Shown here piece after piece: positions 9,832-53,589 of a stretch of DNA of 64,000 nt. Numbering within the stretch: the first letter of the stretch is position 1; each line of letters opens with the position of its first letter. The DNA lies in the NCBI GenBank assembly GCA_028702495.1, contig JAQVOS010000002.1, positions 39-64,038 on the forward strand. The letters run 5' to 3'. The notes beneath the pieces were generated by a model. The model made no database searches, was not told where the DNA came from, and saw only the letters and a list, made by a program, of their open reading frames with translations. The DNA is from Bacilli bacterium (GTDB lineage: Bacteria; Bacillota_I; Bacilli_A; ML615J-28; CAG-698). The position numbers and the translations under genes were made by a program.

Positions 9832-10739
9832 AATAGATTCATCCTTTTCACTTTATAATAAGCACCAAATATGGGATCAAAATCCCCTTCTACAAATTTT
9901 AAACTGATATTGTCTTCTTTTAAGGTTAGAAGCAATTCTTCTTGAGTGATGCGTGAATTCATGATAAACCCACCTCTAAAACCAATGACGGCCTCTTCAT
10001 CAAGTTTTAGATTTTGAACTGCTTTTTTTACATCCACGGCCAAATCACGCCCTGCTTTTTTTAAAAGTTGAATGGCTTCTTGATTATTCTTTAATGCTGC
10101 TTTGCTAACAACATCTGCGAAGGCAGCAATTTCGCGTTTGGTTCGATGATAGACAAAGGAGCGAAGGTCATAAATGCTACTTGCTCCAATTACTTGAAAA
10201 AACTGTAGTGTTAAAGGGGATAATGTTTGATTGGTCTCATATTGATGAATGCTTTGGCACATAAGATCGCGTACGGTTGTAAAAGCAGATCCCACTTCCG
10301 TAAGCATATGGCCAAATCCACCAATGAGTTGCGTTTCATTGTTATGAAGCCCCAAAACGGCTGATCCAGTACCTGATAATACGAGGATGCCTTGATTATA
10401 TAAGTCAGTAACAATCGAGTATAATGCGATACTAGCATCATTATCGATGTAAGTAGGAATATGATAAGTTGCTTCGTAATCTAAGCGAATCTCTTCAAGA
10501 TTGGTGATAACCCCTAATCCAGATAGACCCATGGATATACAAACAATCTCGTATTGTAAATGGGCAAACTGATAAGCTTTATCAACACCCAATCGAATAT
10601 TTTCAAGGGCTTGATCGCCGACAACGGCAGGAGAACCTGAGCCTTCAATGGTTGTAAAAAGAATGTTTTTGAGTGCATCAATGATGCATACTTTGGTCTT
10701 GCTGCCACCCGCATCAACGGCAATGATTACTTTTTCCAT
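9825..10739 (-). CDS. BadF/BadG/BcrA/BcrD-type ATPase, a putative N-acetylmuramic acid / N-acetylglucosamine kinase (MurK-like)
   Basis: N-terminus IIAVDAGGSKTKVCIID is the ASKHA sugar-kinase phosphate-1 motif. 7-nt overlap with anmK. Confidence 0.7.
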   Translation of the reverse strand: MEKVIIAVDAGGSKTKVCIIDALKNILFTTIEGSGSPAVVGDQALENIRLGVDKAYQFAHLQYEIVCISMGLSGLGVITNLEEIRLDYEATYHIPTYIDNDASIALYSIVTDLYNQGILVLSGTGSAVLGLHNNETQLIGGFGHMLTEVGSAFTTVRDLMCQSIHQYETNQTLSPLTLQFFQVIGASSIYDLRSFVYHRTKREIAAFADVVSKAALKNNQEAIQLLKKAGRDLAVDVKKAVQNLKLDEEAVIGFRGGFIMNSRITQEELLLTLKEDNISLKFVEGDFDPIFGAYYKVKRMNLLC

Positions 10740-20311: not shown

Positions 20312-21346
20312 TTACATACCAGTGATGCCTGTTCTTCCTATGCTTTCAACAAATAATTTTTGGATAAAGAAATAAGCAATTAAAAGTGGAAGCATCATTA
20401 ATAAGGCCGCTGTGTTGGTGACTAAACCAAAGAAGAGTGGGTCATCCTTAATTTCGTCACCTAAATTACGAAGTAATTCTCCAAATGATGTGACCATAGT
20501 TGCAGATAGGGATCCTGATCCGGCTGCAAGTTTTGTGGTTAACACAGGGAAAACTCGTTCAAATCGGTAAAGATGGGCATAGTAGTAATCATTGTATTGC
20601 CATACAAAGGCAAAGAGTCCGACGGTGACGGTGGCTCCACCCGCATTTGGAAGCATGACACTCCAAAACGTTCTAATGACACCAGCTCCATCGATTTCTG
20701 CTGATTCTTCGAGTTCAATCGGTAAGTTACGGAAGAACTGAACAAATAAATAGATAAAGATAGCACTACGAAGCCCCATTCCGAAAGCTGACATAATATA
20801 AATTGAGAAGACATTAAAGATAAGGTCGATTCCAAAGAAATTAGTACTCTGGAAGAATAACCATCTTGACAAGTCGAGGGTCTCATTGGGAACCACTAAC
20901 GTAAACAACACTAAGTAGAAGAATATTTTACTACCAGGAAATTTTAATCGAGCAAAAGCATATCCTGCAGTGGCGGTTGCGATGATTTGAATACACATGG
21001 AGAAGAACGATAACACGATTGAGTTTATAAATGTAATATTATAGCTCAAATAGTGATACGCAATTCTAATGTTTTCAAAACTAAAGGTTCCAGGAATCCA
21101 AATGACTTGTGGATCTGTAATATCGGTTGGATAACGAAGAGCAAATGAAAACTTTTGTAACAGTGGTAACAAGATAATGAATGACAAGCCAATTAAGATA
21201 AAGGCACGGATGATGTTACCTCCGACTTCCATTGCTTTCTTTGAACGAACACGTTTTTTGATTGGATTATCCCAATCTTTACGGAATTCTTGATAACGAG
21301 TCCGAAGCTGATCTTTGAATCTAATTTTTGTTGGATTATTCGTCAT
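20312..21346 (-). CDS. Carbohydrate ABC transporter permease (LplC/YtcP-like)
   Basis: Multi-pass membrane protein with an EAA-like loop (ESAEIDGAGVIRTFWSVMLP). Confidence 0.75.
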   Translation of the reverse strand: MTNNPTKIRFKDQLRTRYQEFRKDWDNPIKKRVRSKKAMEVGGNIIRAFILIGLSFIILLPLLQKFSFALRYPTDITDPQVIWIPGTFSFENIRIAYHYLSYNITFINSIVLSFFSMCIQIIATATAGYAFARLKFPGSKIFFYLVLFTLVVPNETLDLSRWLFFQSTNFFGIDLIFNVFSIYIMSAFGMGLRSAIFIYLFVQFFRNLPIELEESAEIDGAGVIRTFWSVMLPNAGGATVTVGLFAFVWQYNDYYYAHLYRFERVFPVLTTKLAAGSGSLSATMVTSFGELLRNLGDEIKDDPLFFGLVTNTAALLMMLPLLIAYFFIQKLFVESIGRTGITGM

Positions 21347-22409
21347 AATAGAACACCGCCTTTGAGAGTAGCCATAATACTAAGGCGACAATGACCATAC
21401 TGACTATACAGAACACCCACGACATCGCAGCATTCACCCCGAAATCAGTGAGTGGGCCCAACGTTGCAGATGCAATTTTATCGGTTGTATTATAAGCTGC
21501 AATAAAAGTAACCAATGGTGAGGTTAAGAATGAATCGACCACGGTATAAACAGCTGCTGTTAGCATCATAGGTGATACCATTGGGAAAGTGATTTTCCAG
21601 AACATTTCATATTGAGTAGCACCTTCAATTTTTGCAGCTTCATATAAGTGTTTGGGAACAGATTGAATTGCTGACAAGAAAATTAGGATTTGAACCCCTG
21701 AATAAGAAATGATGTCATAAATTTTAGCAGATGCGTTACCTAAGAAAGTCACTCCGCCAACAGGAATGTTCGCATTGAGTAAGAAATCTTCAAAGCTAAA
21801 CATTTGGGCAAATAGATCATTCGTCGTCGATTGAATGGTTTGTTGAAGAGCAGTTGCAGAAGTCATGGCGAGATCAATTGCCTGGGAGTTAAATATAACA
21901 GGCATGAAGAAAATAGCACGAACAAAAGCTCTTCCTTTGAATTTTGAATTTAATACAACAGCAATTAATAAACTGAAAATCAAGATAACAGGAATATCGG
22001 AAACGATATCAATAATCGCCTGAACGAGGATTTCTGAGAATGATCCAGAAGAAGTTGCTGCTTCGGTGAATGCATAAATATAGTTTTTAAATCCTACAAA
22101 TTCAAGTTTAATCCCTTGATCAATGACAACGTTATTAAAACTATAATTAACGGAAACAATAAGAGGAATTATAAAGAAGTAAATCAACCCCACGAGGAGA
22201 GGAAGAACGAATACAACACCCCATATTTTCTTTCGTTGACGATAAGGAATGACTCTTGCAAGATAATTGGGAATATATCCCAAAACTCGGGAAATCGCTT
22301 GAACAAATTTTGTTTCACCTAATTTACTAAAGAATTGGCGAAGGATGGTCATGATTTTAGTGAAAAAATGTGAAATGCTTGAAGCAATATTCTGAAAGAA
22401 TTTTTTCAT
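21336..22409 (-). CDS. Carbohydrate ABC transporter permease (LplB/MalF-like)
   Basis: Multi-pass membrane protein with an EAA loop (YEAAKIEGATQYEMFWKITFP). Confidence 0.75.
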   Translation of the reverse strand: MKKFFQNIASSISHFFTKIMTILRQFFSKLGETKFVQAISRVLGYIPNYLARVIPYRQRKKIWGVVFVLPLLVGLIYFFIIPLIVSVNYSFNNVVIDQGIKLEFVGFKNYIYAFTEAATSSGSFSEILVQAIIDIVSDIPVILIFSLLIAVVLNSKFKGRAFVRAIFFMPVIFNSQAIDLAMTSATALQQTIQSTTNDLFAQMFSFEDFLLNANIPVGGVTFLGNASAKIYDIISYSGVQILIFLSAIQSVPKHLYEAAKIEGATQYEMFWKITFPMVSPMMLTAAVYTVVDSFLTSPLVTFIAAYNTTDKIASATLGPLTDFGVNAAMSWVFCIVSMVIVALVLWLLSKAVFYYDE

Positions 22410-22413
22410 ATCA

Positions 22414-25400
22414 TTAACCTCCTATCTTAATGTAATTATATGGATTGATGGTGGTTAGACCATATGTGTAAGCACGATTGCTACCATTAATCACAAGAAC
22501 AACGCCATTGGAATAAGTAACTTTTGAGATATCTTTCGCAATACGCTCATGATTAACTAACTGTCCTCCATGGATGTTAGTTTCATTGATGCGAGTGTTA
22601 AAACTAACGATGGTATCTCTCCAGTTTTCATAATATGTCTTGAAATATTGTGTGTAATCAGTTTCTAACAAGACGTTAGGATTTTCATATGATAATTGGA
22701 AATTTACGTTTGCTCCTGTTTCTAATGCTTTCACAAAATAGTAGTTGGTGCTACGATCGCTCGTTCCATTGACAAGTTCAGTAGTATAATCGAACAATCC
22801 ACTCACAACCAATTGATAGAAAGGAATGGTTTGATCGAAAATCCCATAAGTACTTGAAGTAACAGGAACATCGATGGCAATATCAACATATGGGAATGCA
22901 AAATCGTAAGGAGCGGATAGTTGAACAGATTCAAGCTGCGATTGCAAATATTCAAGAGTTGCTATTTGATAACGGACGCTATCATGATTAAATATCTCAG
23001 ATTTTTTCTTATAATCACCAATTCTCATATTACCTAAATCAGATAAATAAGCACCTGTAATTCCGAAATCATCAAAAGAAGCATAGAGTCTTTCAGCAAG
23101 AGATTGATAATACTTAGGACTAGTATAGTAAGTTGGAGTTAATTTTTTATCGATATACAATGTTGCTAAATTGAATGGATACTGCATCGCATCATTGTTA
23201 CCAACGCTCCTGCTTGTATATTTAATCGTTCCAAAGGGGTATTCATATCCCTTAGAGGAAGTAACATACAATTCAGGATAAAAAGCAATGCTATTATCAT
23301 CGAGATATTGGGCAAGATTTATGAGTCCTTTTTTTCTCCCCAATGCTTCTGAGGCTCTTAGGTAAGCAGTAGTTTCATATTCAAATTCATCATCAGTCCA
23401 AGATGAATAACTTACTGTAAGATTAGCAACACCTAAGTCGAGTAACTCGGATATGATGGTTTTAGCTTGACTAAAGGTTGTTAGGTTGTCTGGTTTCATG
23501 TATTTGATTCCTAGTAACATTTGATAACGTTCAAATGCTCCTAAGAAATTAAGATTTGTTACATTAGTTGTCGTGTTATCTTTGAGTGTTAAATCATATT
23601 TATCAATCAGATATTCACGATATTTTTGAGCGACTCCCGTATAGCCTAGTTCTGTATTTTCTAAGAAAATGAAACGATAAGTGATATCATTGGGAGCTAA
23701 TACTTTTGTCCATTTAGGGAATTCAACAGCATTCCACCCTGTTCCAGCAGTCACATATTCGTTTTCACGAACATTGGTAGTGTAGAAAATGGTGTTAACT
23801 CTATTACTTCCTCTAGGAACATCAGCGACCAATTTAGATTGGGATGCGCCTTGTTCAACAACGGTCATAATTCCTTTTTGGTCAGTCGTGTCGATAAAAC
23901 CATACATGCCAAGCATCAAGTTTTCAACATCTTCAACAGCACGATTGAGCATGAATGCTTTATCTAGCCCATAAACCGATTTACTATAACCAGCATAGTT
24001 TAATTCTGCTTTTCCATTACTGAAGTTGATGATTGCTCCAGATCCATCGGGAATAATCATCATTCCTTCGCGGAAGGGATCATCTTCTTCTGGTCCTATA
24101 CGTTCACTAGCTGTGGTCATTTCCTTTAAAAATTGCACAGAAGTCATGATATAGTCATGGTCATAAATGGGATTTAAAGCTTTGTGATCAGAATCGCGAA
24201 GGGACTCTGATAATACCGTTGCTTCTAAGCCATTATCTGTTAGTATTAATTGCAAGCAAACTTGGAAACGCTCTAAGGATGTTGCTGTCTCAACATTAAA
24301 AAGGGCATTATCCTCTGCTACTTGTTCGAGAGAATACAATTGCTGTACTGGTTTTCCTTCATTATCATATAAGAAGTTTCCTTCGGCATCGCGTTTATGG
24401 TAACCTCCACGAATAATTGGTTCTCCTGATTCCCAAACAATGGGAATCTTATCTTCAGAGTAGTCGGTTTGTTCGAAAGAGGTATACAAGAAACTGTAAC
24501 AAGCTTGCTTTTCCATCGAGGATTTCATGTTGGTATCAAAATAAGAAAGAGAAGGGTCTTCTTTTGAATGAATGACCTTATAATATGACTGACTTAATGA
24601 GTTAAACATTTGACTCGAGAAGAAAGGATTACTAGTACATGGCGAAGTGGGACTATTGAGATGCGTTCCATAACTATTATAAAATGATGGATCAATATCA
24701 CTAATTCTCCAATAACCAAGACTAAGTCCTTCATCAAAACCAGTATCGACAGTAGCAAGATAGTTTTCTTCAATATATTTAACTGCGTCATATGAATACA
24801 CATACCCCATGCCATTAAATTGTAACACTTGGGGGTTGGCTGATAAATTCTGAATTTTCGTTCCGAAGAGGACATTTCCACGGAATCTTTCCTCTAAAGT
24901 GCTTCGATTATATAATTCGATTACTTCGAGTTCGGCTTCTGAAAGTTCAGTCTCTGAAGTATATTTTGCATTATAATTTGCAATGTTGAACTTCACAGGG
25001 AAATAATCATCATTGGCACTAAAACGTCCAATATCGTAAAGGATTTGAACACCACCATCGATATACTTTAGTTTGTAATGACTTTCAGATTCACCGGTTA
25101 AGGTATTCTTAAATTTTACACTACTAAGCATGGTATCATAGGGCGTGGTTTGAGCAGCTCCGTTGGATCTTGCAGCATAATATAACAACAAATTAGCTCC
25201 TGCAGCCGATGTGGTATCATCTTTTGCAGTTTGATATGTAACAGTTGCAGTACTATAATCCCCTGGAGTCGTGCATGATCGCTTATCAACAATGGTTGCA
25301 ATGGTTGTTTCTTCATCAAAGAACATCGCATGTGTTGCTGTTTCACCAATCAATTTATTATGATCATATGTTAAGGTGATGAGAGTCCCATCATCTTCCT

Positions 25401-25563
25401 TTTGACCAGTACTAAAATTGATAAATCCAGTTTCATCAAAAGCAAGGGAATCTTTTTCAAGAGCCGTTATTTTCAAACCTCCAACGAAATAGAGAAGGGT
25501 TAAAACAACAACAACGACAATAATGATATAAGAGACAATATATTTTAGTTTTAAAAATCTCAT
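22414..25563 (-). CDS. Very large (1049 aa) protein with one N-terminal transmembrane anchor and an extracytoplasmic body with no recognisable domain
   Basis: N-terminal TM IVSYIIIVVVVVLTLLYFVGG. The rest is hydrophilic and Thr/Tyr/Asn-rich. It sits immediately upstream of the permease pair, where an SBP gene would be expected. Confidence 0.6.
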   Translation of the reverse strand: MRFLKLKYIVSYIIIVVVVVLTLLYFVGGLKITALEKDSLAFDETGFINFSTGQKEDDGTLITLTYDHNKLIGETATHAMFFDEETTIATIVDKRSCTTPGDYSTATVTYQTAKDDTTSAAGANLLLYYAARSNGAAQTTPYDTMLSSVKFKNTLTGESESHYKLKYIDGGVQILYDIGRFSANDDYFPVKFNIANYNAKYTSETELSEAELEVIELYNRSTLEERFRGNVLFGTKIQNLSANPQVLQFNGMGYVYSYDAVKYIEENYLATVDTGFDEGLSLGYWRISDIDPSFYNSYGTHLNSPTSPCTSNPFFSSQMFNSLSQSYYKVIHSKEDPSLSYFDTNMKSSMEKQACYSFLYTSFEQTDYSEDKIPIVWESGEPIIRGGYHKRDAEGNFLYDNEGKPVQQLYSLEQVAEDNALFNVETATSLERFQVCLQLILTDNGLEATVLSESLRDSDHKALNPIYDHDYIMTSVQFLKEMTTASERIGPEEDDPFREGMMIIPDGSGAIINFSNGKAELNYAGYSKSVYGLDKAFMLNRAVEDVENLMLGMYGFIDTTDQKGIMTVVEQGASQSKLVADVPRGSNRVNTIFYTTNVRENEYVTAGTGWNAVEFPKWTKVLAPNDITYRFIFLENTELGYTGVAQKYREYLIDKYDLTLKDNTTTNVTNLNFLGAFERYQMLLGIKYMKPDNLTTFSQAKTIISELLDLGVANLTVSYSSWTDDEFEYETTAYLRASEALGRKKGLINLAQYLDDNSIAFYPELYVTSSKGYEYPFGTIKYTSRSVGNNDAMQYPFNLATLYIDKKLTPTYYTSPKYYQSLAERLYASFDDFGITGAYLSDLGNMRIGDYKKKSEIFNHDSVRYQIATLEYLQSQLESVQLSAPYDFAFPYVDIAIDVPVTSSTYGIFDQTIPFYQLVVSGLFDYTTELVNGTSDRSTNYYFVKALETGANVNFQLSYENPNVLLETDYTQYFKTYYENWRDTIVSFNTRINETNIHGGQLVNHERIAKDISKVTYSNGVVLVINGSNRAYTYGLTTINPYNYIKIGG

Positions 25564-25573
25564 ATGTTGCCTC

Positions 25574-26251
25574 CTATATTAAATCCCGTAAGGTTATTTC
25601 ACGATATAAGGTATACAAGAATCCGTACATCCGTTGAAATAAGTCATAACTTAGGAGTAATACGAATACAATAATGGATGCTGCAAGTAAGGTTCCTAAA
25701 ATGGTAATAATGCATTTAAAGAGGCCATATTCATGAATGGAAATCATTCCAAAAAAGACCATATAGCCCATTAAAAAGGAACCAATAGAAAGAGTTAAAC
25801 CATAGAATGCAATTTCATCACCTGTTAGAAAATTACTTAAAATAAGTGCAAACCCTGTTGCCCAAATCATGGGGAAAAGAGAATAAGAAATCATCATAAA
25901 GATATCTTTCATTTTTCCTTTTCCATCAGCGAGGGTTGTGACAGACCAGTTTGAAATGGTGATGAGGATGATGGGAGCAATGATGTAAATTATTTCAGCA
26001 ATACTATTCAAATCGCGAATATCATTGTTATTGAGTTCGAATCCTGTGTATTGGAATGATAAGATATTAAGAAGAACCAATACAATAATAAACACGATAC
26101 TAACTTTCATGCTACCGCGTTTCCCACGTTTGAATTCCTCAAATCCTTTGAGTGGATGAAGCATGATATAAACAGGGAATTTGATGTATTCAGAAACGAA
26201 TACTCCCCATCCTTTTTTTAGATTTTCCATAAATTTAGTCATAGGATTCAT
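25574..26251 (-). CDS. Yip1-domain multi-pass membrane protein. The start is probably the ATG at 26249-26251 or 26240-26242
   Basis: Five hydrophobic helices and a Yip1-like topology. RBS AGGAGG immediately upstream of the internal ATGs. Overlaps the stop of the upstream gene. Confidence 0.5.
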   Translation of the reverse strand: MNPMTKFMENLKKGWGVFVSEYIKFPVYIMLHPLKGFEEFKRGKRGSMKVSIVFIIVLVLLNILSFQYTGFELNNNDIRDLNSIAEIIYIIAPIILITISNWSVTTLADGKGKMKDIFMMISYSLFPMIWATGFALILSNFLTGDEIAFYGLTLSIGSFLMGYMVFFGMISIHEYGLFKCIITILGTLLAASIIVFVLLLSYDLFQRMYGFLYTLYREITLRDLI

Positions 26252-28187
26252 CAGCCTCCTGCCGTATATTTCCGATACGTTTCTTTTTGTAGATCCCGTA
26301 GGCAATCATACCAGCGACGATGGCAAGAAGTCCTGCTGTAATATAAGGGAATGATTTACGAATTCTTGCATCACGATATAATTTGAAAGCACGAGAATAC
26401 GCATCACGGTCAGCACCAATTTTAAAATACTCCATGGCTTTTTCGTAATCTTTTTGTTTATTATACATTTTACCAATGCCAATATATGCATATTCATAAT
26501 TTGAATTTTGTTTAACAACTTCCATCCATTTCAATGCTGCTTGATCATTATCACCAACGTATTCAAATTGAACAGCTTCATTGATGAGAGCACCAATATC
26601 GGTATTTTCATATACGAGGATGGCTTTGCTATTCTTGTCAAGCACTAAGATATCATCCCCGTGATAAGTAATGGCAACGGGGTTGCTTAAAGTATCGATT
26701 TGTGCTCCACGTTCAGCAGCAAGGTATAGAGGTTCACCAGAAATATATAAGAGGTTCCCTTCATAATCGTAGGTAAAAAGTTTCCCCATTTTTGAGTCAA
26801 CAACAGTATAAACACCATAGTCATTTACGGTAATACCTGTGAGTTTTGAAGGACCACGAACGGCAGCAGCCGTACTCGAACGAATATAAATGACATCACC
26901 TTTAGGAGCTTGATATCCATTACGACGAATGACATCTTTTCCAGAAGTATTAATCAATTTAATCATGCTATTATCATTGGTGACAATGCCATCCTCATTG
27001 GTGATGGCAAAAGATGTTGAATAGATGAAGCCACTACTATTTGTACACATACTCGTAAAGGAGGTATTGATAATTGAGCTTTGTTTTGATAATTGGGATT
27101 CTGTTGAAATATTTCTCCAGAATATTTCCCATGCACTTAAAGTAACATAGTTCACACCTGTAAAACGATTGAATATACCATCCACACTGAATTGAATGAT
27201 ACCTTCAAAAATATTGTCGGCAATGACATACATTCTCCCTGTGACATCAGTAATAATGTCTTTGGGAGCAAATGTTACACCTTGGAATGAAATATCATCG
27301 GGAACTGTTACAAATTTGACCACTTCATAAGTAAGAGCATCAACGACAACGATTTGGTTGTTGCCTTTGTCACATAAGTAGATGTAATCTTCTCCTGTTT
27401 TTTCAACCACAGAACGATAGACTCCCACCACTCCAGAGAGTTTCAATTGAAAAGAAGTCATATTATCGAGTTCTTCTTGTGAAAATGCGCTGTTCTTATT
27501 GGGGTCAATAACGCTTCCAGGAACTTCAGTTGTCACGACAACTTGAAATTTTTGGGAAATAGAAGGAGTAGGAGTCATTTTTTCCAAGTCAGTTACAGTA
27601 TAAAATTCAGCAGTGACGCTGGTTTTACCAATGCCTTTAGCAACGACATAATCGACTCCGTCAATATTTTCTACTTTTGCGATTTGATCATTGGCGCTTT
27701 TCCATCTCATTTCAACATATTCTGTTGTTACCTCATAGGGAGTAATCACAGCTTTGCCTAGATTAGGATCACCATTTTGAAGGAAAAAGGTATCACGAGC
27801 AACGACCCAATCTTTATTGCTCTTAATCTTTGATAGAACACTCGGTGAGAAATTATCAATGGTTAATTTAAAATCACTGACGGTTTCTTGTAAAACAAAG
27901 TTTTCATCAAAAACAAAGAGTTTATTAGAAATGGAATCAACCACATAAATGGTTTCATTTCCTAAATTATCTTTATAAATGAATAAATCTTCAGGAGATG
28001 TAAAATCTGTGGGTTCAATTCCAAGAGTATCAGCAATATAAGGATCTTGGTTCACAGTTAACCCAATGGTAGAATAGATGGCTTCGCCTTTGTGGTTGTA
28101 GGTATAACCGGTAGCCGCTTTGGCATTGATGGTCGTGAATAGGACGATTGCCGTCAATAGAAAAATGAGAATTTTTGTTTTTCGCAT
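26235..28187 (-). CDS. Secreted, membrane-tethered protein (650 aa): signal peptide, a beta-propeller-like repeat region, C-terminal TPR repeats, then a C-terminal TM anchor with a basic tail
   Basis: Signal peptide MRKTKILIFLLTAIVLFTTINAKA. Repeated short hydrophobic beta-strand-like segments (e.g. YVVDS, YLCDKGNNQIVVVD, ILVLDKNSKAILVYE). TPR-like segment (YEYAYIGIGKMYNKQKDYEKAMEYFKIG). TM ITAGLLAIVAGMIAYGIY followed by KKKR. Confidence 0.55.
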   Translation of the reverse strand: MRKTKILIFLLTAIVLFTTINAKAATGYTYNHKGEAIYSTIGLTVNQDPYIADTLGIEPTDFTSPEDLFIYKDNLGNETIYVVDSISNKLFVFDENFVLQETVSDFKLTIDNFSPSVLSKIKSNKDWVVARDTFFLQNGDPNLGKAVITPYEVTTEYVEMRWKSANDQIAKVENIDGVDYVVAKGIGKTSVTAEFYTVTDLEKMTPTPSISQKFQVVVTTEVPGSVIDPNKNSAFSQEELDNMTSFQLKLSGVVGVYRSVVEKTGEDYIYLCDKGNNQIVVVDALTYEVVKFVTVPDDISFQGVTFAPKDIITDVTGRMYVIADNIFEGIIQFSVDGIFNRFTGVNYVTLSAWEIFWRNISTESQLSKQSSIINTSFTSMCTNSSGFIYSTSFAITNEDGIVTNDNSMIKLINTSGKDVIRRNGYQAPKGDVIYIRSSTAAAVRGPSKLTGITVNDYGVYTVVDSKMGKLFTYDYEGNLLYISGEPLYLAAERGAQIDTLSNPVAITYHGDDILVLDKNSKAILVYENTDIGALINEAVQFEYVGDNDQAALKWMEVVKQNSNYEYAYIGIGKMYNKQKDYEKAMEYFKIGADRDAYSRAFKLYRDARIRKSFPYITAGLLAIVAGMIAYGIYKKKRIGNIRQEADESYD

Positions 28188-28197
28188 GATGACCTCC

Positions 28198-29142
28198 TTA
28201 TTTCATACCTGAATGAGCCATTGTTTCCATAACTTGAGATTGAGTAATCACAAAGACGGAAATAGGAACTAAAATCATTATTAAACTAACCGCAGCTAAG
28301 GTTCCTTGACGAGCAGGACCAGCTGTTGCAATTTGGGTAATGGCATAACTGACCATTTTTAAATCTTCACGATAAATATATTGTGCCCCTGAAGCAGCCC
28401 ATAAGCTTTGGAATAATAAGATTAAGAGTGTTAACCAAGCGGGTTTAACGATTGGCATAACAATTTTCCACAAAATCTTCATATCGCCTGCTCCATCAAG
28501 TTTCGCTGATTCAATATAATCGGTTGGAACTTGAGTCATGAATTGTCTCATAAGGAAGAGACCAAGGGATGAAGCAATGGAAGGAAGGATGAGGGACCAT
28601 TGAGTATCAATCATTCCCAATACATTAAAGATAAGGTAATGAGGAATCGCAGTAACGCTTCCTGGGAACATTAGGGAATACACAATGATGCCCATGATGA
28701 GGCTTCCACCAGGAATTTTGTATTTTGCTAGGGGGTAAGCACACATGGAGGCAATGATGATATGCCCAAGAGTACCAGCGAAAGTGACAAGAATGGTATT
28801 AAAGAAATAGCGTGAGAAGGGAACTAAAGAATTTCCTAAGGCATTGGCTAAGTCAATAAAGTTCACAAGCGTTGGATTTGCCACCCATAGTCTTGGGGGA
28901 TATAGGAACAATTCATTAAGCGGTTTAAAGGCATTAAAGAATGTTAACAACAAAGGTAGCATACTAAATGAGCCAGCAATCGCTAGGAAGACAAAGAGAG
29001 TAATATCGCCCGCTTTGGAACGGTTCACTCTTTTCTTCTTCTTTGAACGAAGAAGAACGGTATAAGCACCGATTTCCGAGAATGGACGAGAATCAATGCG
29101 ACGAGCTTTAATGGCGTTGTAATCTTTTTCTTTTTTAGCCAT
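28198..29142 (-). CDS. Carbohydrate ABC transporter permease (LplC/YtcP-like)
   Basis: EAA loop ESAKLDGAGDMKILWKIVMP and 6 TM segments. Confidence 0.8.
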   Translation of the reverse strand: MAKKEKDYNAIKARRIDSRPFSEIGAYTVLLRSKKKKRVNRSKAGDITLFVFLAIAGSFSMLPLLLTFFNAFKPLNELFLYPPRLWVANPTLVNFIDLANALGNSLVPFSRYFFNTILVTFAGTLGHIIIASMCAYPLAKYKIPGGSLIMGIIVYSLMFPGSVTAIPHYLIFNVLGMIDTQWSLILPSIASSLGLFLMRQFMTQVPTDYIESAKLDGAGDMKILWKIVMPIVKPAWLTLLILLFQSLWAASGAQYIYREDLKMVSYAITQIATAGPARQGTLAAVSLIMILVPISVFVITQSQVMETMAHSGMK

Positions 29143-29144
29143 TA

Positions 29145-30131
29145 TTAGTTACCTACCCTTCTAATCATACGACGAATCAGTTTATTGAGTCCTATGGATG
29201 CTAGGAAGAGGAGCGTTGCAATTGCCGATGCATAACCCATTTCATATCGAATTCCCCCGTAGTCAGATAAGTGGTTCACGATGGTGTGAGCCGCATAGGA
29301 TACAGAGGGGAACCCAGCAAGGGCAGTGGTGATTCCACCAATCCCAAGCGTTCCAGAAATTTGCATAACGGCACTGAATATCAATTGTGGTTTCATTGAT
29401 GGAAGAGTTATATACCATAATTCTTGCCAACGATTACGAATGCCATCAAGAGCTCCAGCTTCATATAATTCTTTATTCACTGATTTTAAACCAGCAACGA
29501 GGGATAAGAACCCTACGCCCAAACTCATCCACAATTGAACGACGATGACAATGGGGAGAATATAGGTCGTGTTGGTTAACCATGTTTGTGGTTCAGTGAT
29601 AAAGCCCCATTCCAAGAGAAAGGCATTGGCATACCCATAAATATCACTTGAAAAAATGAGGGTCCAAATGACAAGAGCATTGGCAGATAATGAAGGGGCA
29701 TAGAAAGCAAGTGTAACAATGGAACGAAGTTTTCCAGGGAGTTCATTAATCAACCAAGCAATCACGAAAGCAGCAACATACCCAATCGGGCCAGTGATGA
29801 CTGCTAATATCAATGTGTTTTTAATTGCAATGATGAAAATTTCATCATCAAGGAATAAGGTAAGATAATTGGTCCATCCAATGAATTTAGGGGCTTCTAA
29901 AATATTATAGGATGTGAAACTCAATGCTAAACTCATGAGGACAGGGATTACTGTGAATGTTACGAAGAGGATTAAATAGGGAAGCATCATGAGGTAAAGT
30001 GTACGGTTTAAGTACATTTTACGACGAACAGGTCCACCTTTTTTACTCCATGCTTCAGCTTTTTCACCCATACGACGCCACCATTGACGAAAAGAGGTCA
30101 AGGCATTTTTCTTTTCAATTGATTGTTGCAT
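29145..30131 (-). CDS. Carbohydrate ABC transporter permease (LplB-like)
   Basis: EAA loop YEAGALDGIRNRWQELWYITLP. Confidence 0.8.
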   Translation of the reverse strand: MQQSIEKKNALTSFRQWWRRMGEKAEAWSKKGGPVRRKMYLNRTLYLMMLPYLILFVTFTVIPVLMSLALSFTSYNILEAPKFIGWTNYLTLFLDDEIFIIAIKNTLILAVITGPIGYVAAFVIAWLINELPGKLRSIVTLAFYAPSLSANALVIWTLIFSSDIYGYANAFLLEWGFITEPQTWLTNTTYILPIVIVVQLWMSLGVGFLSLVAGLKSVNKELYEAGALDGIRNRWQELWYITLPSMKPQLIFSAVMQISGTLGIGGITTALAGFPSVSYAAHTIVNHLSDYGGIRYEMGYASAIATLLFLASIGLNKLIRRMIRRVGN

Positions 30132-30142
30132 CTTAATCCTCC

Positions 30143-33118
30143 TTATTCATCCGATCCAACAGGTAGACCGAATTCTTCACGTTTACGGGTAATTTCATTA
30201 TTGATGGTTTGAATGTATTGTTCAAAGGTGTTACGTGGATTGTAATTGTTATTCACAACTTCACGGAAGGCATTTTCAAGATTTCTTCCTGTATAGTATC
30301 CACCAGCAATTTCAGGAACACCAACGGTTACTTCCCATTGCGAAAGCAAGATTTGTTGTTCTTCAATTGTCCATGCAAGCCGTGTGAATGCTTCCACATT
30401 CGCGGTTGGATGACGAGCTGCTGATCCTAAAATTGCTTCTACTTCACGAGCATAACTGGTTTGTGTATCGGTAGATATCCACCATTTCATAAACTTCCAA
30501 GCCGCTTCTGGATTGTCGGTGTCATTCATCATGACTACGGATGTCCCGCTAGCAGCACCTGAATGGTCAATGGTGTTATCATCTTGACGAGTTCCAGGTA
30601 ATAGTGCAAAAGCCCAACGTCCTTTAATTTCAGGAGCAGATACGGCAAGCGTGTTATATAAGTCGTAGTTGGCAATACCAATTGGCATTTCACCACTTCG
30701 AAAGCGGTTAATGAAGGTTGCTCCAGTAATGGTCAGTGAGAAGCTATGATTTGTATAGAAGTCACACCACCACTCAAAGGCAGACATGGCTTCTTCACTA
30801 TCAAAATTCGATTCGATGTATTCTTCGCCTTGATTGTTTAAGGCATTTCGATAGAAGGACCCGCCTGTTTGATAGAGACGAGAAGCAAATACTTGGTTCA
30901 CGACACTACTTGCTCCCACAGTATTAAGGGGTAGATAGAATTTTAAGTTTTGAATTTGCAATTCAGAAATAAGATTGATCACATCGACCCAAGTTTCTGG
31001 AACATCCCAGTTTTGAGCTTCAAAAATGTCCGTGCGATAGAAAAGCATCAAGAAACTTTGCGTATTGGGAAGACCATAATAACCACCTTGGAATTCATAA
31101 GGGGTCATTGAACTTGGTGCAAACTGTGCGACAACCTCTTCAAAATCTTCAAATGTAGATAGATCATAGGTTGCACCTCGGAGCGCATAATTGACAGGGA
31201 GTCCATTGGCTGCATTGATGGCAATGTCTGGACCTTTCCCGGCAAGGGTTGCTGTCAAGAGAACATCCGGAGATACAATTTTTAAGGTAATGTTTAAATC
31301 TTCTCCAAAATCAGAATCGATGAGGGTACGAATCGCGTTGGCTTGTTCACGACCAGCCATTTCAGAAGTCAATAACCACACTTCGATATTCTCTGCATTT
31401 TCTTTAGCAACGGTGGTTCCGATAGACTCGTAATCAAAGGTAAAGGATTGAATAAATGCTTTTATATTAAACCAAGATCCAATAAAGAAATTGGGGTTGG
31501 CACGTGGTAAATCATAATCATCGCTATGAACAATTAGGTAATCAACCACTAAAGATTGACGTGATACGGTTAAAATCCAAGTACCTAGGGATGAAATATT
31601 GGTACTGAATGTTCCGAGATTTTGTTGAATCAAACGTGGTTTTTTAATGAATTTTCCAAGTTGCAACATAATGGTTTGAAGGGAAGCGGTTTCACTACTC
31701 TTTTCACCACTAATGGAGTTGATGGTATCAGCGACATCGGAAAGTTCTTCAAGAGCATTTTGAAAAGTAGTAATTAGATTTGGAATTTTTGTCGTTAATT
31801 GATAATCCTGATATTTATCTGGATTAATACCTGTTTTTGCGATAATCCTACGATACATATCATTCAAATTGTCAATGACATTTTGTACACGAGCGATTTG
31901 TGCTCCGTAATCTCCTAAAGTGGCTTCCAAAGTAATTTGATGAGTACCTTCGGTTAAATAGAAATAGAAAGGTTTATCTTCAGTTCCTAAAGTCACCATG
32001 CTGAAATCAGAAGTATAAATGAATTTCGCATTTTGAGCTTCAGCGAAAGGAACTTCACCATCAACATATACCGCCCGGGTTGAGAACAATCCACGAGAAG
32101 TGCTTTGTTTTGCCCGAAGAGTGATGTTGTATAATCCACTTTGAGGGACAGTAAATTCCCAAGTAATCCAATCTCCAGGAGTGATCCATTTTGAACCACC
32201 AATGGAGTTAAGAATAATCTTAACGGGATCCGCCGGAGAGTTATAAGCGCTGGAACGATCGGAAGTGGCATAAATGGTGGGTGAAGAACGATAAATGGCA
32301 TTCTCACCTTCGATGAAATCTGTTCCGCTATCACTTGAAGCAGCGATTTCACCAGTCACTTTGTCGTATCCTTTGGTTTCATATTCAGCTTCTACTTCAG
32401 CATAAGTCTTAAAGACTTGTTTGCTGATGATGTGAACAGCAAAAATGCTCATTGCTTCACGAAGTGATTTAAATGTGAGGGTATTAATACCACTGCTAAA
32501 ATAAACTAGATAAGGCTCACTCACATAACCTACTTCATCTTTTACATAACTTGAACGTTTCACTGGTATTTCAATTTGACGAGGACGAATTTGATTTCCT
32601 GTGATATCAGTAATGATTTCACCACCATCGCCCCATACACGTTTAAAAGCTACGTTTTCTAAATCTTGGTAAGGAATCGAACCATTCACATAAATGGTGC
32701 GTTCAATATTTGCTCCACCATCAATTTCAGGAATGTAGTCCACTTTAATGTTATAGAAGCCAGCTGTTGGTACATTAAAACTCCAAGTAGCTGATCCTGA
32801 AGAGGTGGTTTCAAGAGCAAGAGGGGTAGCAGGATAGCTCGCGCTATAATCCTTCACATTAAAATCACCTGTTGCATCTCCTGGCTGTAAAACAATGTCC
32901 ACATTGTTTGGAGTTAGGGCATCGGGATGTTCTTCTATGTAGTTGTTATAAGGTCCGCTAACAATAACGGGTTCAGAAATGGTCGAACGAGAATAGGCAT
33001 GGTCATATCCATAACTATCAACGATAATGAAAAGTAAGAGTGAGACCAACCCGACGAGTAATAACCAAAGGACAACTTTTTTAACTAGTTTCCCTGTAAT
33101 CATGAATTGCTTATTCAT
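30143..33118 (-). CDS. Membrane-anchored extracytoplasmic protein (991 aa). Two tandem ~170-aa carbohydrate-binding-module-like repeats are fused to a C-terminal ~480-aa family-1 sugar-binding protein domain (LplA/YtcQ-like)
   Basis: N-terminal TM VVLWLLLVGLVSLLLFIIV. Internal repeat (YNIKVDYIPEIDGGANIERTIYVNGSIPYQDLENVAFKRVW and YNITLRAKQSTSRGLFSTRAVYVDGEVPFAEAQNAKF). SBP hallmarks in the C-terminal half (ITLKIVSPD...GKGPDI...YYGLPNTQSFLMLFYRTDIFEAQNWDVPETW). Confidence 0.65.
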   Translation of the reverse strand: MNKQFMITGKLVKKVVLWLLLVGLVSLLLFIIVDSYGYDHAYSRSTISEPVIVSGPYNNYIEEHPDALTPNNVDIVLQPGDATGDFNVKDYSASYPATPLALETTSSGSATWSFNVPTAGFYNIKVDYIPEIDGGANIERTIYVNGSIPYQDLENVAFKRVWGDGGEIITDITGNQIRPRQIEIPVKRSSYVKDEVGYVSEPYLVYFSSGINTLTFKSLREAMSIFAVHIISKQVFKTYAEVEAEYETKGYDKVTGEIAASSDSGTDFIEGENAIYRSSPTIYATSDRSSAYNSPADPVKIILNSIGGSKWITPGDWITWEFTVPQSGLYNITLRAKQSTSRGLFSTRAVYVDGEVPFAEAQNAKFIYTSDFSMVTLGTEDKPFYFYLTEGTHQITLEATLGDYGAQIARVQNVIDNLNDMYRRIIAKTGINPDKYQDYQLTTKIPNLITTFQNALEELSDVADTINSISGEKSSETASLQTIMLQLGKFIKKPRLIQQNLGTFSTNISSLGTWILTVSRQSLVVDYLIVHSDDYDLPRANPNFFIGSWFNIKAFIQSFTFDYESIGTTVAKENAENIEVWLLTSEMAGREQANAIRTLIDSDFGEDLNITLKIVSPDVLLTATLAGKGPDIAINAANGLPVNYALRGATYDLSTFEDFEEVVAQFAPSSMTPYEFQGGYYGLPNTQSFLMLFYRTDIFEAQNWDVPETWVDVINLISELQIQNLKFYLPLNTVGASSVVNQVFASRLYQTGGSFYRNALNNQGEEYIESNFDSEEAMSAFEWWCDFYTNHSFSLTITGATFINRFRSGEMPIGIANYDLYNTLAVSAPEIKGRWAFALLPGTRQDDNTIDHSGAASGTSVVMMNDTDNPEAAWKFMKWWISTDTQTSYAREVEAILGSAARHPTANVEAFTRLAWTIEEQQILLSQWEVTVGVPEIAGGYYTGRNLENAFREVVNNNYNPRNTFEQYIQTINNEITRKREEFGLPVGSDE

Positions 33119-34943
33119 AGATTCCTCCTTGCAATATGGTTGTAAATTGGATAAGTGTTTTAATATACTGGATGCTCTTATTTAAGCCGCTTCTTTTATT
33201 GCGAGCCATCCAAAGAGTTTTGAGTCCTTCAATCAATGGTTGTTCCATGGCAATCACGTCCCCAAGCAGTGCTTTACGAGCGGCGAGCGTCAATTCTTGA
33301 TTCATTGATTGATTGATTTTTAGTAATGTTTCTACAAACGAAATTGAGTGTTTAATTTCTTCTTTCACAAGAGGTTCAACTGCAGCAAGTTCTAATTCTT
33401 TGCGTTTTTGTTGGAAGAACCCAGTTAGTATTGTATATTTTTTTGTTGATAAGATTTTATCTTGGGTCTTTAATTTAAAATAAGCAATAGGATCTTTTTC
33501 TTTCATAGCATAGGTTGCCCATAATAAAATATGGAAGGCGTGAGTACCGTTATCAACAAAATTGTTTTCTAGTTGATGATAAGTTCCTAAATTGAGCAAG
33601 CAGTCAGCAATGATATTTTCTTTGTCATGGAAAACATAACGATTGACAAAGTGCTTCAAATCACGATAGACACCAGGGGTGACGCGATAGCTCATGAGGC
33701 CTGCATATGCAAGGGGAACTAGACTAATTGGCAAGAATTGAAGATGTCCAAAGTCTCCCCAATCAGTGAGTAACAGTCCTTTTCCATGATAAGCTTTTAC
33801 ATAGATACAAGCATTGGAAATGGTTTCAAGAGCATCCCAAGTCCGTCCTAAGAAACTACACCAGCTGGCTGTTCCAGGAGCGGCCATGAAAGGAATGTTG
33901 GCATCACTTAAGACTTTCAGATGGCGATCGTAAGGATAAGTCGCATCATATCCCCAATCGACAAATATCATATCTTTGGGAAGTCGAGAGAGAGCATCAT
34001 CATGACGAATGAGAACATCCCCCCAAATAAGGGGTGTTTTTCCATATTTCTTGATTTCATCATAAGCTTTTAAAGTGTAATCAATGTATACATTGGCAAG
34101 ACCTTTGGTCTCAACTTCTGCTTTACTACGTCCACGACCCAATTCAAAGGGTTCATCAAAATTCATATTAAAATAGGGGGATTTTGAATAGGGCAACATG
34201 TCCTGATACATTTTTTGGATGAGTTCAAATGAACGTGGATCCAAAGGATTCAAGGTAGAAGGAGCACGATGTGTTCCCCACAAGAAAATTCCTTCAGGAG
34301 CTTCCGCTAAATCTTTTAACTCATCATGACTTAACCAGTCAGCCATGTGCCCAAATCCATTCTGATTCGGTACTAAATCAATAAAGCGATCCATGGCATA
34401 GGTTTCTAGTTCTTGATATTCTAAAACGCTAATGAATGATTCAGCTTCAAGATATTGAGGAAACGATTTGTACTCAAATGAAAAGCCTTCAACATATAGT
34501 TCAAAGTGATTCATTTTAAGAAGACTCATTAGATCTAATACTTGTTTAATAGTCGAAACTGTTGGAACTTTATTCCGACTAATATCCATCATATAACCAC
34601 GAATGGGAAGATCGGGTTCATCAAAAATGCTGACACACTCCATTAATGGCGATAACATTTGTTTTAGAGTTATAACGGCATAGAAAAAACCAACTGTTTT
34701 ACTTGCATAAACCAGAATGGCATTTTCTTGTACCTCGATCTCATAGGATTCGGGTCTTAAATCTAATTTGTTATAAAAGCGAAGGGAACTATCTTCTTCA
34801 CACCCTAAAGAAAAAGGGGCATCAGTGTTTAGTTCGCGAAAAACACGTTCATCGAATGATTCGAAATAAGCGATTTGCTTTTCCAACCGGAATTGACCAG
34901 CATGGGCAATGTTCTTTTTAGGGCGTGGAAAAATTTTATACAT
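33111..34943 (-). CDS. Cytoplasmic GH20-family beta-N-acetylhexosaminidase. The start is at the ATG at 34941-34943
   Basis: GH20 catalytic-domain features (IRGYMMDISRNKVP, HFELYVEGFSFEY, and the D-E pair in FDEPFE). No signal peptide. GGGAG RBS. 8-nt overlap with the downstream SBP-fusion gene. Confidence 0.65.
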   Translation of the reverse strand: MYKIFPRPKKNIAHAGQFRLEKQIAYFESFDERVFRELNTDAPFSLGCEEDSSLRFYNKLDLRPESYEIEVQENAILVYASKTVGFFYAVITLKQMLSPLMECVSIFDEPDLPIRGYMMDISRNKVPTVSTIKQVLDLMSLLKMNHFELYVEGFSFEYKSFPQYLEAESFISVLEYQELETYAMDRFIDLVPNQNGFGHMADWLSHDELKDLAEAPEGIFLWGTHRAPSTLNPLDPRSFELIQKMYQDMLPYSKSPYFNMNFDEPFELGRGRSKAEVETKGLANVYIDYTLKAYDEIKKYGKTPLIWGDVLIRHDDALSRLPKDMIFVDWGYDATYPYDRHLKVLSDANIPFMAAPGTASWCSFLGRTWDALETISNACIYVKAYHGKGLLLTDWGDFGHLQFLPISLVPLAYAGLMSYRVTPGVYRDLKHFVNRYVFHDKENIIADCLLNLGTYHQLENNFVDNGTHAFHILLWATYAMKEKDPIAYFKLKTQDKILSTKKYTILTGFFQQKRKELELAAVEPLVKEEIKHSISFVETLLKINQSMNQELTLAARKALLGDVIAMEQPLIEGLKTLWMARNKRSGLNKSIQYIKTLIQFTTILQGGIYE

Positions 34944-34980
34944 AGGAACTCCCATCAATAAATGAAATTCAGTATAGACA

Positions 34981-53566: not shown

Positions 53567-53589
53567 TATTAACATTGGAGGAATTATAT

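Follow-up and report, generated by a model that had tools for sequence, protein, structure and literature searches.

An invariant eight-gene cassette of Firmicutes combines two ABC permease pairs with a giant binding protein and three membrane proteins, one of them a distant GH129 homologue

Glycan uptake across the single membrane of Gram-positive bacteria is far less understood than uptake by the Sus systems of Bacteroidota. Among the CUT1-type sugar importers, for which a shared ATPase encoded elsewhere is usual, the maltose importer MusEFGK2I of Corynebacterium glutamicum depends on an extra small membrane protein, MusI. Here we describe an eight-gene cassette in a 64,000-nucleotide stretch of DNA (the window; positions 39 to 64,038 of contig JAQVOS010000002.1, assembly GCA_028702495.1) from the metagenome-assembled genome (MAG) of a Bacilli bacterium. 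The cassette encodes two pairs of ATP-binding cassette (ABC) permeases, a giant solute-binding protein (SBP) and, between the permease pairs, a trio of membrane proteins: a 650-amino acid (aa) beta-propeller/tetratricopeptide repeat (TPR) protein, a Yip1-family protein and a 1049-aa protein of Pfam family DUF5696 (PF18952). The only experimentally studied bacterial Yip1 protein in the searchable literature is YknW of Bacillus subtilis, an accessory membrane subunit that modulates, or is required for, assembly of the YknXYZ ABC transporter (PMC4887032). The described enzymes closest to DUF5696 belong to, or resemble, glycoside hydrolase (GH) family 129. They are the alpha-N-acetylgalactosaminidase NagBb of Bifidobacterium bifidum (PDB 5wzn), with catalytic Asp435, and the 3,6-anhydro-D-galactosidase DagB, or ZgGH129, of Zobellia galactanivorans (5opq, 8rzk), which is GH129-like and active; DagB keeps only the NagBb-type Asp, lacks the acid/base residue and also needs an Asp in its N-terminal domain (PMC5698469).

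The cassette occupies positions 33118-20312 of the window, on the minus strand, in the order giant SBP, permeases A1 and A2, propeller/TPR protein, Yip1 protein, DUF5696 protein, and permeases B1 and B2. When one genome per species was scanned, at least 558 species-level genomes were found to contain a relative of the DUF5696 protein. Synteny was counted in the best 80 of these loci, 67 of which had enough flanking sequence for the cassette test, by searching the window proteins against the six-frame, stop-to-stop open reading frames (ORFs) of the 80 loci. Identical, co-directional gene order was found in all 67 loci, 65 of them by an automatic completeness test and two by inspection; overlapping stop-to-stop ORFs were the only cause of failure of these two in the automatic test. 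The hosts include Acholeplasmataceae, Bacilli MAGs, Paenibacillus, Cohnella, Lederbergia, Gracilibacillus and Thermobacillus (Bacillaceae included), as well as Ruminococcus, Oscillospiraceae and Lachnospiraceae. On the Butyrivibrio fibrisolvens plasmid pNP243, the RefSeq names given by the Prokaryotic Genome Annotation Pipeline read GH43, SBP, two permeases, NHL repeat protein, YIP1 family protein, DUF5696, two permeases and two SBPs. As a negative control, 80 loci encoding NagBb-type soluble GH129 enzymes were searched, and no cassette gene was found within 3 kb. The trio, the two permease pairs and the giant SBP are one invariant eight-gene unit, widespread in Firmicutes. An initial annotation of the window had correctly placed three tightly packed minus-strand genes at 28187-22414, between the permease pairs, and had proposed synteny in relatives as a check. 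It had also described the trio as wedged between two importers, a description superseded by the invariant unit, which in the window is apparently transcribed with a GH20 gene.

Membrane anchoring is conserved along with the gene order: a transmembrane (TM) segment was found in 73 of 77 DUF5696 proteins, 64 of 68 SBPs and 61 of 63 propeller C-termini. Median identities to the window proteins, taken over the loci from outside Acholeplasma, were 55 % and 51 % for permeases A1 and A2, 39.5 % over about 916 residues for the giant SBP, 39 % and 37 % for permeases B1 and B2, 34 % for both the propeller and Yip1 proteins, and 27 % for DUF5696. The neighbours change from locus to locus. Among them are enzymes of GH10 (19 loci), GH43 (15), GH3 (11), GH95 (6) and GH38 (6); the cassette sits with xylanases in Paenibacillus and Lachnospiraceae, and AraC-type response regulators adjoin it in 14 loci. 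The cassette is thus a platform that stays the same while the enzyme sets joined to it vary.

The propeller/TPR and Yip1 proteins are linked by gene fusion as well as by position. In 10 of the 80 loci the propeller, TPR, TM and Yip1 parts lie in one uninterrupted ORF of about 690-820 aa, the halves of which match the window proteins with E values of 1e-17 to 1e-68. A C-terminal Yip1 domain is present in 46 of the 149 best representatives of the propeller family, and Pfam NHL, TPR and Yip1 were all detected in seven of eight tested representatives of about 700 aa. An origin of these fusions as an artefact of stop-to-stop ORFs was considered and rejected, because both halves lie inside single uninterrupted ORFs. 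It is also ruled out by a 720-aa 'YIP1 family protein' in RefSeq and by the joint occurrence of the three Pfam domains in independent database proteins. The fusions are strong evidence that both proteins work as one membrane unit. The 720-aa protein is encoded on a plasmid of Paenibacillus cellulosilyticus, where RefSeq shows a ugpC-type ATPase gene followed by a cassette with the fused form. This cassette (locus L083, NZ_CP054609.1, 80384-104390) has the ABC ATPase gene directly on its 5' side; downstream of it, in place of glycoside hydrolases, are genes for several LLM-class flavin-dependent oxidoreductases and for additional SBPs.

The 650-aa protein (28187-26235, minus strand) consists of a signal peptide, a six-bladed NHL-type beta-propeller with an immunoglobulin (Ig)-like insert, TPR-like helices, and a C-terminal TM segment with a KKKR tail. 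A simple hydropathy scan, the source of all hydrophobic and TM segments given here for window proteins, detected the N-terminal hydrophobic signal and a C-terminal TM segment at residues 615-633, followed by KKKR. An AlphaFold model with 43 homologues (mean predicted local distance difference test score, pLDDT, 84.2) contains the beta-propeller, TPR-like hairpins at residues 530-590 and a long C-terminal TM helix. An Ig-like beta domain at about residues 130-220 interrupts the propeller in the model and is not found in shorter homologues. Foldseek comparison of the model with the PDB returned NHL propellers (Lin41/TRIM71, TRIM2/3, Thin), virginiamycin B lyase and YncE, with E values of 4e-13 to 1e-8, and the family profile matched the TRIM3 NHL domain (E 2e-7) and designed consensus TPR proteins (E 7e-6); the Foldseek and profile matches both identify a six-bladed NHL propeller fold. 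Pfam NHL is detected in homologues and falls below threshold in the window protein itself, and TPR_1 scores 19.3 bits, under its gathering score of 27.8; the NCBI name is 'tetratricopeptide repeat protein'. Neither Pfam nor NCBIfam has a family that spans the whole protein.

The Yip1 gene (26251-25574, minus strand) was mechanically called from TTG 26305, and its likely start is ATG 26251 or 26242, behind AGGAGG. Either ATG makes the gene overlap the stop codon of the 650-aa gene at 26237-26235. The protein matches PF04893 with 43.3 bits (gathering score 28.6; E 4.8e-11; model positions 2-172 of 173) and has five hydrophobic segments, which assigns it to the Yip1 family. All three trio genes are preceded by a GGAGG-type ribosome-binding site, and are separated by 4-10 nt or overlap. 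Homologue searches with the trio gave many full-length homologues (35 and 306 matches, and for the propeller family 717 representatives of 50 %-identity clusters at E<=1e-30). The initial annotation was right about the anatomy of the 650-aa protein, as judged by hydropathy, the AlphaFold model and Foldseek. It was also right about a five-TM Yip1-type protein whose start overlaps the preceding stop, and about the single-pass topology of the 1049-aa protein.

The 1049-aa protein (25563-22414, minus strand) has a single N-terminal TM segment at residues 9-27, an extra region of about residues 30-410, and a GH129-like three-domain part. It matches Pfam DUF5696 with 439.3 bits (gathering score 25.6) at residues 413-1044, over model positions 2-612 of 612, and NCBI also names it by this family. 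Its model (34 homologues, pLDDT 90.3, predicted template modelling score 0.82) has the three-domain fold of GH129, with an N-terminal beta-sandwich, a (beta/alpha)8 barrel and a C-terminal beta-sandwich. The closest Foldseek matches were ZgGH129 (E 7e-26) and NagBb (E 1e-22, template modelling score 0.6 on the target). When a profile of 79 cassette-type DUF5696 proteins was aligned with one of 47 GH129 sequences using hhalign, the probability was 99.5 %, with E 2e-21 over 557 columns, and residues 380-1040 of the window protein (22444-24426, minus strand) were matched to full-length NagBb, residues 1-634. A 69-aa NagBb fragment scored 35.3 bits against Pfam DUF5696, over the gathering score. 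At closer range the signal is faint: DUF5696 family profiles matched PDB 5wzn with E values of 0.11 and 0.0096, and a pairwise search with phmmer found nothing among PDB sequences and GH129. The homologue search for NagBb had given only fragments of 41-109 aa, one of them on a frameshift-ridden long-read contig. Intact NagBb genes were obtained by a metagenome scan, and the NagBb sequence was rebuilt from a metagenome locus; the motifs CAYLD435, TSSE478E and 512-VPLYNLVYHDCV-523 served to verify its numbering.

Profile and predicted fold together indicate homology of DUF5696 to GH129 at the distance of a superfamily, not of a family. The 1049-aa protein, anchored in the membrane and facing outwards, is a distant homologue of GH129 enzymes with about 380 extra residues at its N-terminus. 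It had initially been taken to have no recognisable domain, and all three proteins of the trio to belong to no nameable family; the matches to DUF5696 and Yip1, and the homology of DUF5696 to GH129, overturn both statements. A cryptic SBP or GH fold had been named as something to look for in this protein, and of the two it is the GH fold, GH129-like, that was found. The SBP alternative was rejected, there being no SBP_bac_1/8 match and no two-lobe binding fold. In a proteomic study of Paenibacillus O199, an unspecified 'GH129' protein was detected only during growth on crystalline cellulose (PMC4867992). It could be a cassette-type DUF5696 protein that received its name through CAZy-style annotation.

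The giant SBP (33118-30143, minus strand; 991 aa) is the first gene of the cassette and is found in all complete loci. It has an N-terminal TM anchor, about 540 aa without family assignment, and a C-terminal family-1 sugar SBP domain (SBP_bac_1/8) at about residues 576-895. Among sugar SBPs in the PDB it matches 5ysb with E 1.6e-12. The N-terminal half is about 40 % identical across orders of Firmicutes. Sub-threshold matches to Golvesin_C and BclA_C in this half (about residues 40-575) hint at two beta-sandwich modules, which are followed by a helix-rich segment.

A second SBP family is represented in the window by a 565-aa lipoprotein (16968-15271, minus strand) with Big_2 and an SBP-like body. 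The family is present in 55 of the 80 loci, mostly with its gene next to the cassette, either just ahead of the giant SBP gene or just behind that of permease B2. In the window its gene lies four genes downstream of the cassette, with a GH3, a NagB and a GNAT gene inserted after permease B2. In loci L007, L011 and L012 it immediately precedes that of the giant SBP, and the gene next after B2 encodes a MusI/DUF624 protein. The lipoprotein is the probable partner of permeases B1 and B2. Its presence leaves no gap for a binding protein of the second permease pair, and that slot is not filled by the 1049-aa protein; the suggestion that the 1049-aa protein, which has a GH fold and not an SBP fold, replaces a missing binding protein was therefore mistaken. 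The displaced lipoprotein gene of the window is accompanied by that of a MusI/DUF624-type membrane protein (15158-14475, minus strand), which scores 50.7 bits, below the 160-bit MusI cut-off. DUF624 proteins with weak MusI matches accompany the cassette, next after permease B2, in Acholeplasma-type loci (L007, L011, L012 and L070), and this protein may be a further accessory subunit.

The four permeases, all encoded on the minus strand, are MalF-like A1 (29145-30131) and MalG-like A2 (28198-29142), and MalF-like B1 (21336-22409) and MalG-like B2 (20312-21346), the last gene of the cassette. All score above the Pfam threshold (BPD_transp_1 in pair A) and contain EAA motifs; together with the SBP domains this identifies CUT1, or type-I, importers. 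B1 is 23 % identical to A1, and B2 is 27 % identical to A2. Judged by their sequences, they are two anciently diverged MalF/MalG-type pairs, that is, old paralogues. A scan of the window for one Walker-A pattern with LSGGQ, which missed two exporter-type ABC genes, found no importer ATPase, and Pfam ABC_tran matches only these two exporter-type genes, at 44958-48493. We assume that the ATPase for the importers is encoded elsewhere and shared in trans.

Starting from the observed synteny, propeller-Yip1 fusions, membrane topology, GH129 homology and genomic context, we favour, with moderate confidence, a reading in which the cassette is a single machine for glycan capture, trimming and import at the surface of monoderm bacteria. 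Each of the three accessory proteins, like the giant SBP, is anchored in the membrane and lies mostly outside the cell. The propeller-TPR-TM protein and the Yip1 protein would form a membrane scaffold, for which YknW is a precedent, and the scaffold would hold the GH129-like ectoenzyme and the giant SBP beside the two permease dimers. The ectoenzyme would trim captured glycan, and the two SBPs would deliver the products, the giant SBP to pair A and the lipoprotein to pair B, both pairs being powered by a shared MsmX/UgpC-type ATPase from elsewhere. What we infer in this scheme is that the proteins physically assemble, that DUF5696 is catalytic, how the two transporters share the work and which substrate is used.

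For the trio, the data support joint inheritance as an extracytoplasmic module, anchored in the membrane and associated with the ABC permeases. The initial annotation had proposed a dedicated extracytoplasmic apparatus tied to the importers. Co-inheritance, the order in 67 of 67 loci, the fusions and the carbohydrate-active enzyme (CAZyme) neighbours bear this proposal out, and the wedged position, the absence of domains and the stand-in SBP that had accompanied it fall away. The large protein turned out to be GH-like, yet its linkage to the transporters is strictly conserved. A stronger form of the proposal is that the cassette represents a new class of multi-subunit glycan-uptake machine, a counterpart of Sus, in which a scaffold physically joins the GH129-like enzyme and the giant SBP to two translocators, and which is reused for xylan, for fucosylated and mannosylated glycans and, here, for peptidoglycan scavenging. 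We put this forward tentatively, as a possibility that is rather doubtful at present.

Several points weigh against the reading as a capture, trimming and import machine. No experiment or publication was found on any cassette component. Searches of the literature on DUF5696/PF18952, on the propeller family, on Yip1 together with ABC, SBP, xylanase or NHL, on NHL with SBP and GH, and on the cassette itself gave nothing relevant; public annotation of the cassette proteins is limited to generic names, NCBIfam provides no meaningful names for the window proteins, and the cassette is apparently unstudied. The evidence that the cassette proteins may contact one another consists of the fusions and the synteny. 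On the P. cellulosilyticus plasmid, flavin oxidoreductases flank the cassette instead of CAZymes. The giant SBP (about 40 %) and pair A (51-55 %) are unusually conserved relative to Paenibacillus and Clostridia despite the differing neighbour enzymes, which fits poorly with simple substrate-specific importers. Such conservation is unexpected for a specificity determinant. It may be that numerous contacts with other proteins restrict change in the giant SBP; alternatively, transporter A may serve a shared ligand, with specificity residing in DUF5696, the lipoprotein SBP and transporter B.

The remaining points concern catalysis, and were obtained from the 79 cassette-type DUF5696 proteins, with the GH129 catalytic columns placed by profile alignment and not by 3D superposition. 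In this alignment the NagBb nucleophile Asp435 (AYLD) falls on Ser841, and Asp842 (AYLSD; 23038-23040, minus strand) follows one residue later. Position 842 is Asp or Glu in 58 of the 79 relatives, or 61 of 79 if a shift of one column is allowed, so that a nucleophile-equivalent Asp is absent from about 18. The second catalytic residue of NagBb, the acid/base residue, which we take to be Glu478, aligns with Ser883, in a column containing Ser (18 proteins), Asp (18), Asn (15) and Glu (14), with Asp or Glu in only 32 of 79. Because no equivalent of Glu478 was found, the 1049-aa protein is filed as GH129-like and not as a member of GH129, as was reported for DagB (PMC5698469). The near-invariant carboxylates of the family lie elsewhere: they are Asp506, in the PDGSG motif (residues 505-509; 24037-24051, minus strand) that is invariant in 79 of 79 proteins and reads ERSSG in NagBb, Asp534, and Asp910 (22834-22836, minus strand), the best-conserved barrel carboxylate of the clade (74 Asp and three Glu of 79). 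These three are not the GH129 catalytic pair. Catalysis by DUF5696 is thus unproven, the alignment offering a candidate nucleophile Asp and no acid/base equivalent.

The main rival to an enzymatic role retains the cassette and its complex, with DUF5696 as a catalytically dead lectin, lid or docking platform that holds glycans or SBPs over the permeases while neighbouring enzymes, secreted or intracellular, hydrolyse. The residues that vary with context bear on it in both directions. In the clade with a GlcNAc (N-acetylglucosamine) context, which includes the window, position 842 is Asp in eight of nine proteins and the acid/base position 883 is Ser or Lys in all nine. In the GH95-context Ruminococcus loci the nucleophile position is Ser or Thr in three of three, with Asp at 883 in three of three. 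Loci with GH10 or GH43 are acidic at both positions, with Asp842 in 22 of 22 and Asp or Glu at 883 in 14 of 22, and this speaks for an enzyme. As the GH129 catalytic columns co-vary with the neighbour enzymes, we read them as a functional pocket retuned between substrates. A binding role would also suit the invariant PDGSG, YG.D, Asn590, Asn932 and Trp981, which do not belong to the GH129 catalytic residues and are found for the most part in the N-terminal sandwich, and the loss of the His/Asp pair in 'LHLDGW' of NagBb (both Ala in the quadruple mutant 5wzq), where the family has Y-S/N-G-W. On the other hand, the retention of Asp506, Asp534 and Asp910 in 77-79 of 79 proteins is typical of an active site, and DagB is active without the NagBb acid/base residue, using an Asp of its N-terminal domain (PMC5698469). 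We consider a dead module unlikely, and the alternative to be taken most seriously.

It is less probable still, and in our view improbable, that the propeller/TPR-Yip1 unit, or possibly the whole cassette, is mainly sensory or regulatory, reporting extracellular glycan or gating the transporters. In one propeller-family representative, P0207, fused His_kinase and HATPase_c domains take the place of Yip1 and the same NHL propeller module serves as a sensor-kinase ectodomain, so that a sensing role stays under consideration. AraC-type response regulators and histidine kinases adjoin the cassette in at least 14 loci, and the giant SBP is far more conserved than a specificity determinant should be. 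However, the propeller protein of the cassette has no cytoplasmic output domain, ending in a short KKKR tail or in the Yip1 TM segments, the strict linkage is to permeases and not to kinases, and no regulator adjoins the operon of the window. That three unrelated membrane genes merely lie between two independent importers without functional coupling agrees with the weak similarity of the A and B permeases (23-27 %), which marks distinct translocators, and is nonetheless very improbable given the same order and orientation in 67 of 67 complete loci across Firmicutes orders, the gene fusions, the translational coupling in the window and the absence of cassette genes beside soluble GH129 enzymes.

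In the window the cassette is preceded by a gene for a 615-aa GH20 beta-N-acetylhexosaminidase-like protein (33111-34958, minus strand; Pfam Glyco_hydro_20 and 20b) without signal peptide, the stop of which overlaps the giant SBP start by 8 nt. A promoter-like site, TTGAAA-17-TATAAT (35019-34991, minus strand; 11 of 12 positions, a consensus match only), marks the probable start of the transcription unit. Upstream of it a hairpin with a perfect 14-bp stem (35111-35081), scored as a terminator on both strands, separates a 199-aa gene from the GH20/cassette operon. A terminator-like hairpin with a 12-bp stem (20306-20278, minus strand) lies in the 51-nt gap after permease B2. These signals, as consensus matches only, agree with one nine-gene transcript of GH20 and the cassette.

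The surrounding genes encode a GH3-MupG fusion, a BadF-type kinase, AnmK, a MurQ-like SIS protein, NamZ, a NagZ-like GH3 and NagB, and also GHL10, an LD-carboxypeptidase, a beta-lactamase-family protein, a fusion of diaminopimelate (DAP) decarboxylase and M19 dipeptidase, and GH18. The closest relatives of this MAG contig are Acholeplasmataceae, which are wall-less. The salvage genes and the wall-less relatives suggest scavenging of the cell walls of other bacteria. From the surrounding regulon, the substrate in this genome is probably GlcNAc- or N-acetylmuramic acid-containing glycans, that is, peptidoglycan or chitin fragments.

Nearly the whole stretch from 7071 to 44945, on the minus strand, is a salvage island for peptidoglycan and amino sugars, with GH20 among its genes. 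At 10727-13345 (minus strand), a single 872-aa ORF combines a GH3 N-terminal domain with the N- and C-terminal domains of MupG (6-phospho-N-acetylmuramidase). The 730-aa fusion at 39992-42184 (minus strand) joins an Orn/DAP-decarboxylase-type pyridoxal phosphate enzyme to an M19 membrane-dipeptidase domain; beside it lie the genes for the LD-carboxypeptidase and the beta-lactamase-family protein, and it may form part of a module for catabolism of muropeptide stem peptides. A 1178-aa ORF at 53575-57111 is the sole plus-strand ORF of at least 150 aa in the window.

The cassette occurs in fibre degraders of the rumen and gut (Ruminococcus, Butyrivibrio, Lachnospiraceae), in soil Paenibacillus and in Acholeplasma-like bacteria. 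The same eight genes, with neighbours shifting from xylanases to fucosidases to peptidoglycan-salvage enzymes, suggest a general-purpose uptake platform with three obligatory accessory proteins. Its characterisation would show what DUF5696, bacterial Yip1 proteins and an unnamed propeller/TPR family do, and would test whether two ABC translocators can form one complex. In this genome it would reveal how muropeptides serve as food for a bacterium that probably lacks a cell wall.

Compared with the Sus systems of Bacteroidota, the cassette is alike by functional analogy only, in that surface glycan binders, a surface glycosidase (here a putative one) and a dedicated transporter form a unit reused with different enzyme sets. 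Its hosts have no outer membrane, there is no SusC or SusD and no homology, and transport is by ABC permeases. The likeness to MusEFGK2I is confined to the weak MusI-family/DUF624 protein near the cassette in Acholeplasma-type loci, and neither Yip1, DUF5696 nor the propeller protein is related to MusI. As in YknWXYZ, a multi-pass Yip1-family protein is encoded alongside an ABC transporter, a likeness at the level of the family. YknYZ, however, is a MacB-type exporter that works with a membrane-fusion protein in protection from the SDP toxin, whereas the cassette has type-I importer permeases, SBPs, a propeller/TPR protein and a GH-like enzyme. No MacB-type permease, membrane-fusion protein or ATPase was found in the cassette, so only the Yip1 analogy holds, and YknW shows by precedent that a Yip1 protein can serve an ABC system, which is not evidence that the cassette belongs to the YknWXYZ type.

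DUF5696 is about 12-17 % identical to NagBb and DagB. NagBb has no signal sequence, whereas the DUF5696 protein has a TM anchor and the N-terminal extension, and the PDGSG and YG.D motifs invariant in the DUF5696 clade are not in NagBb. DUF5696 is always inside the ABC cassette, unlike NagBb-type genes. The closest overall likeness is to CUT1 (MalEFGK2-like) importers and to the polysaccharide utilisation loci of Gram-positive bacteria, with which the cassette shares a family-1 SBP, MalF/MalG-like permeases with EAA loops, and GH, AraC and histidine kinase neighbours; as in CUT1 importers that share MsmX or MsmK, its ATPase is not encoded alongside. We class it as a CUT1-type sugar importer locus with a putative surface glycosidase, not as something categorically new. 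It differs from other CUT1 systems in having two permease heterodimers, a 990-aa TM-anchored SBP, and three obligatory accessory membrane proteins encoded between the permease pairs.

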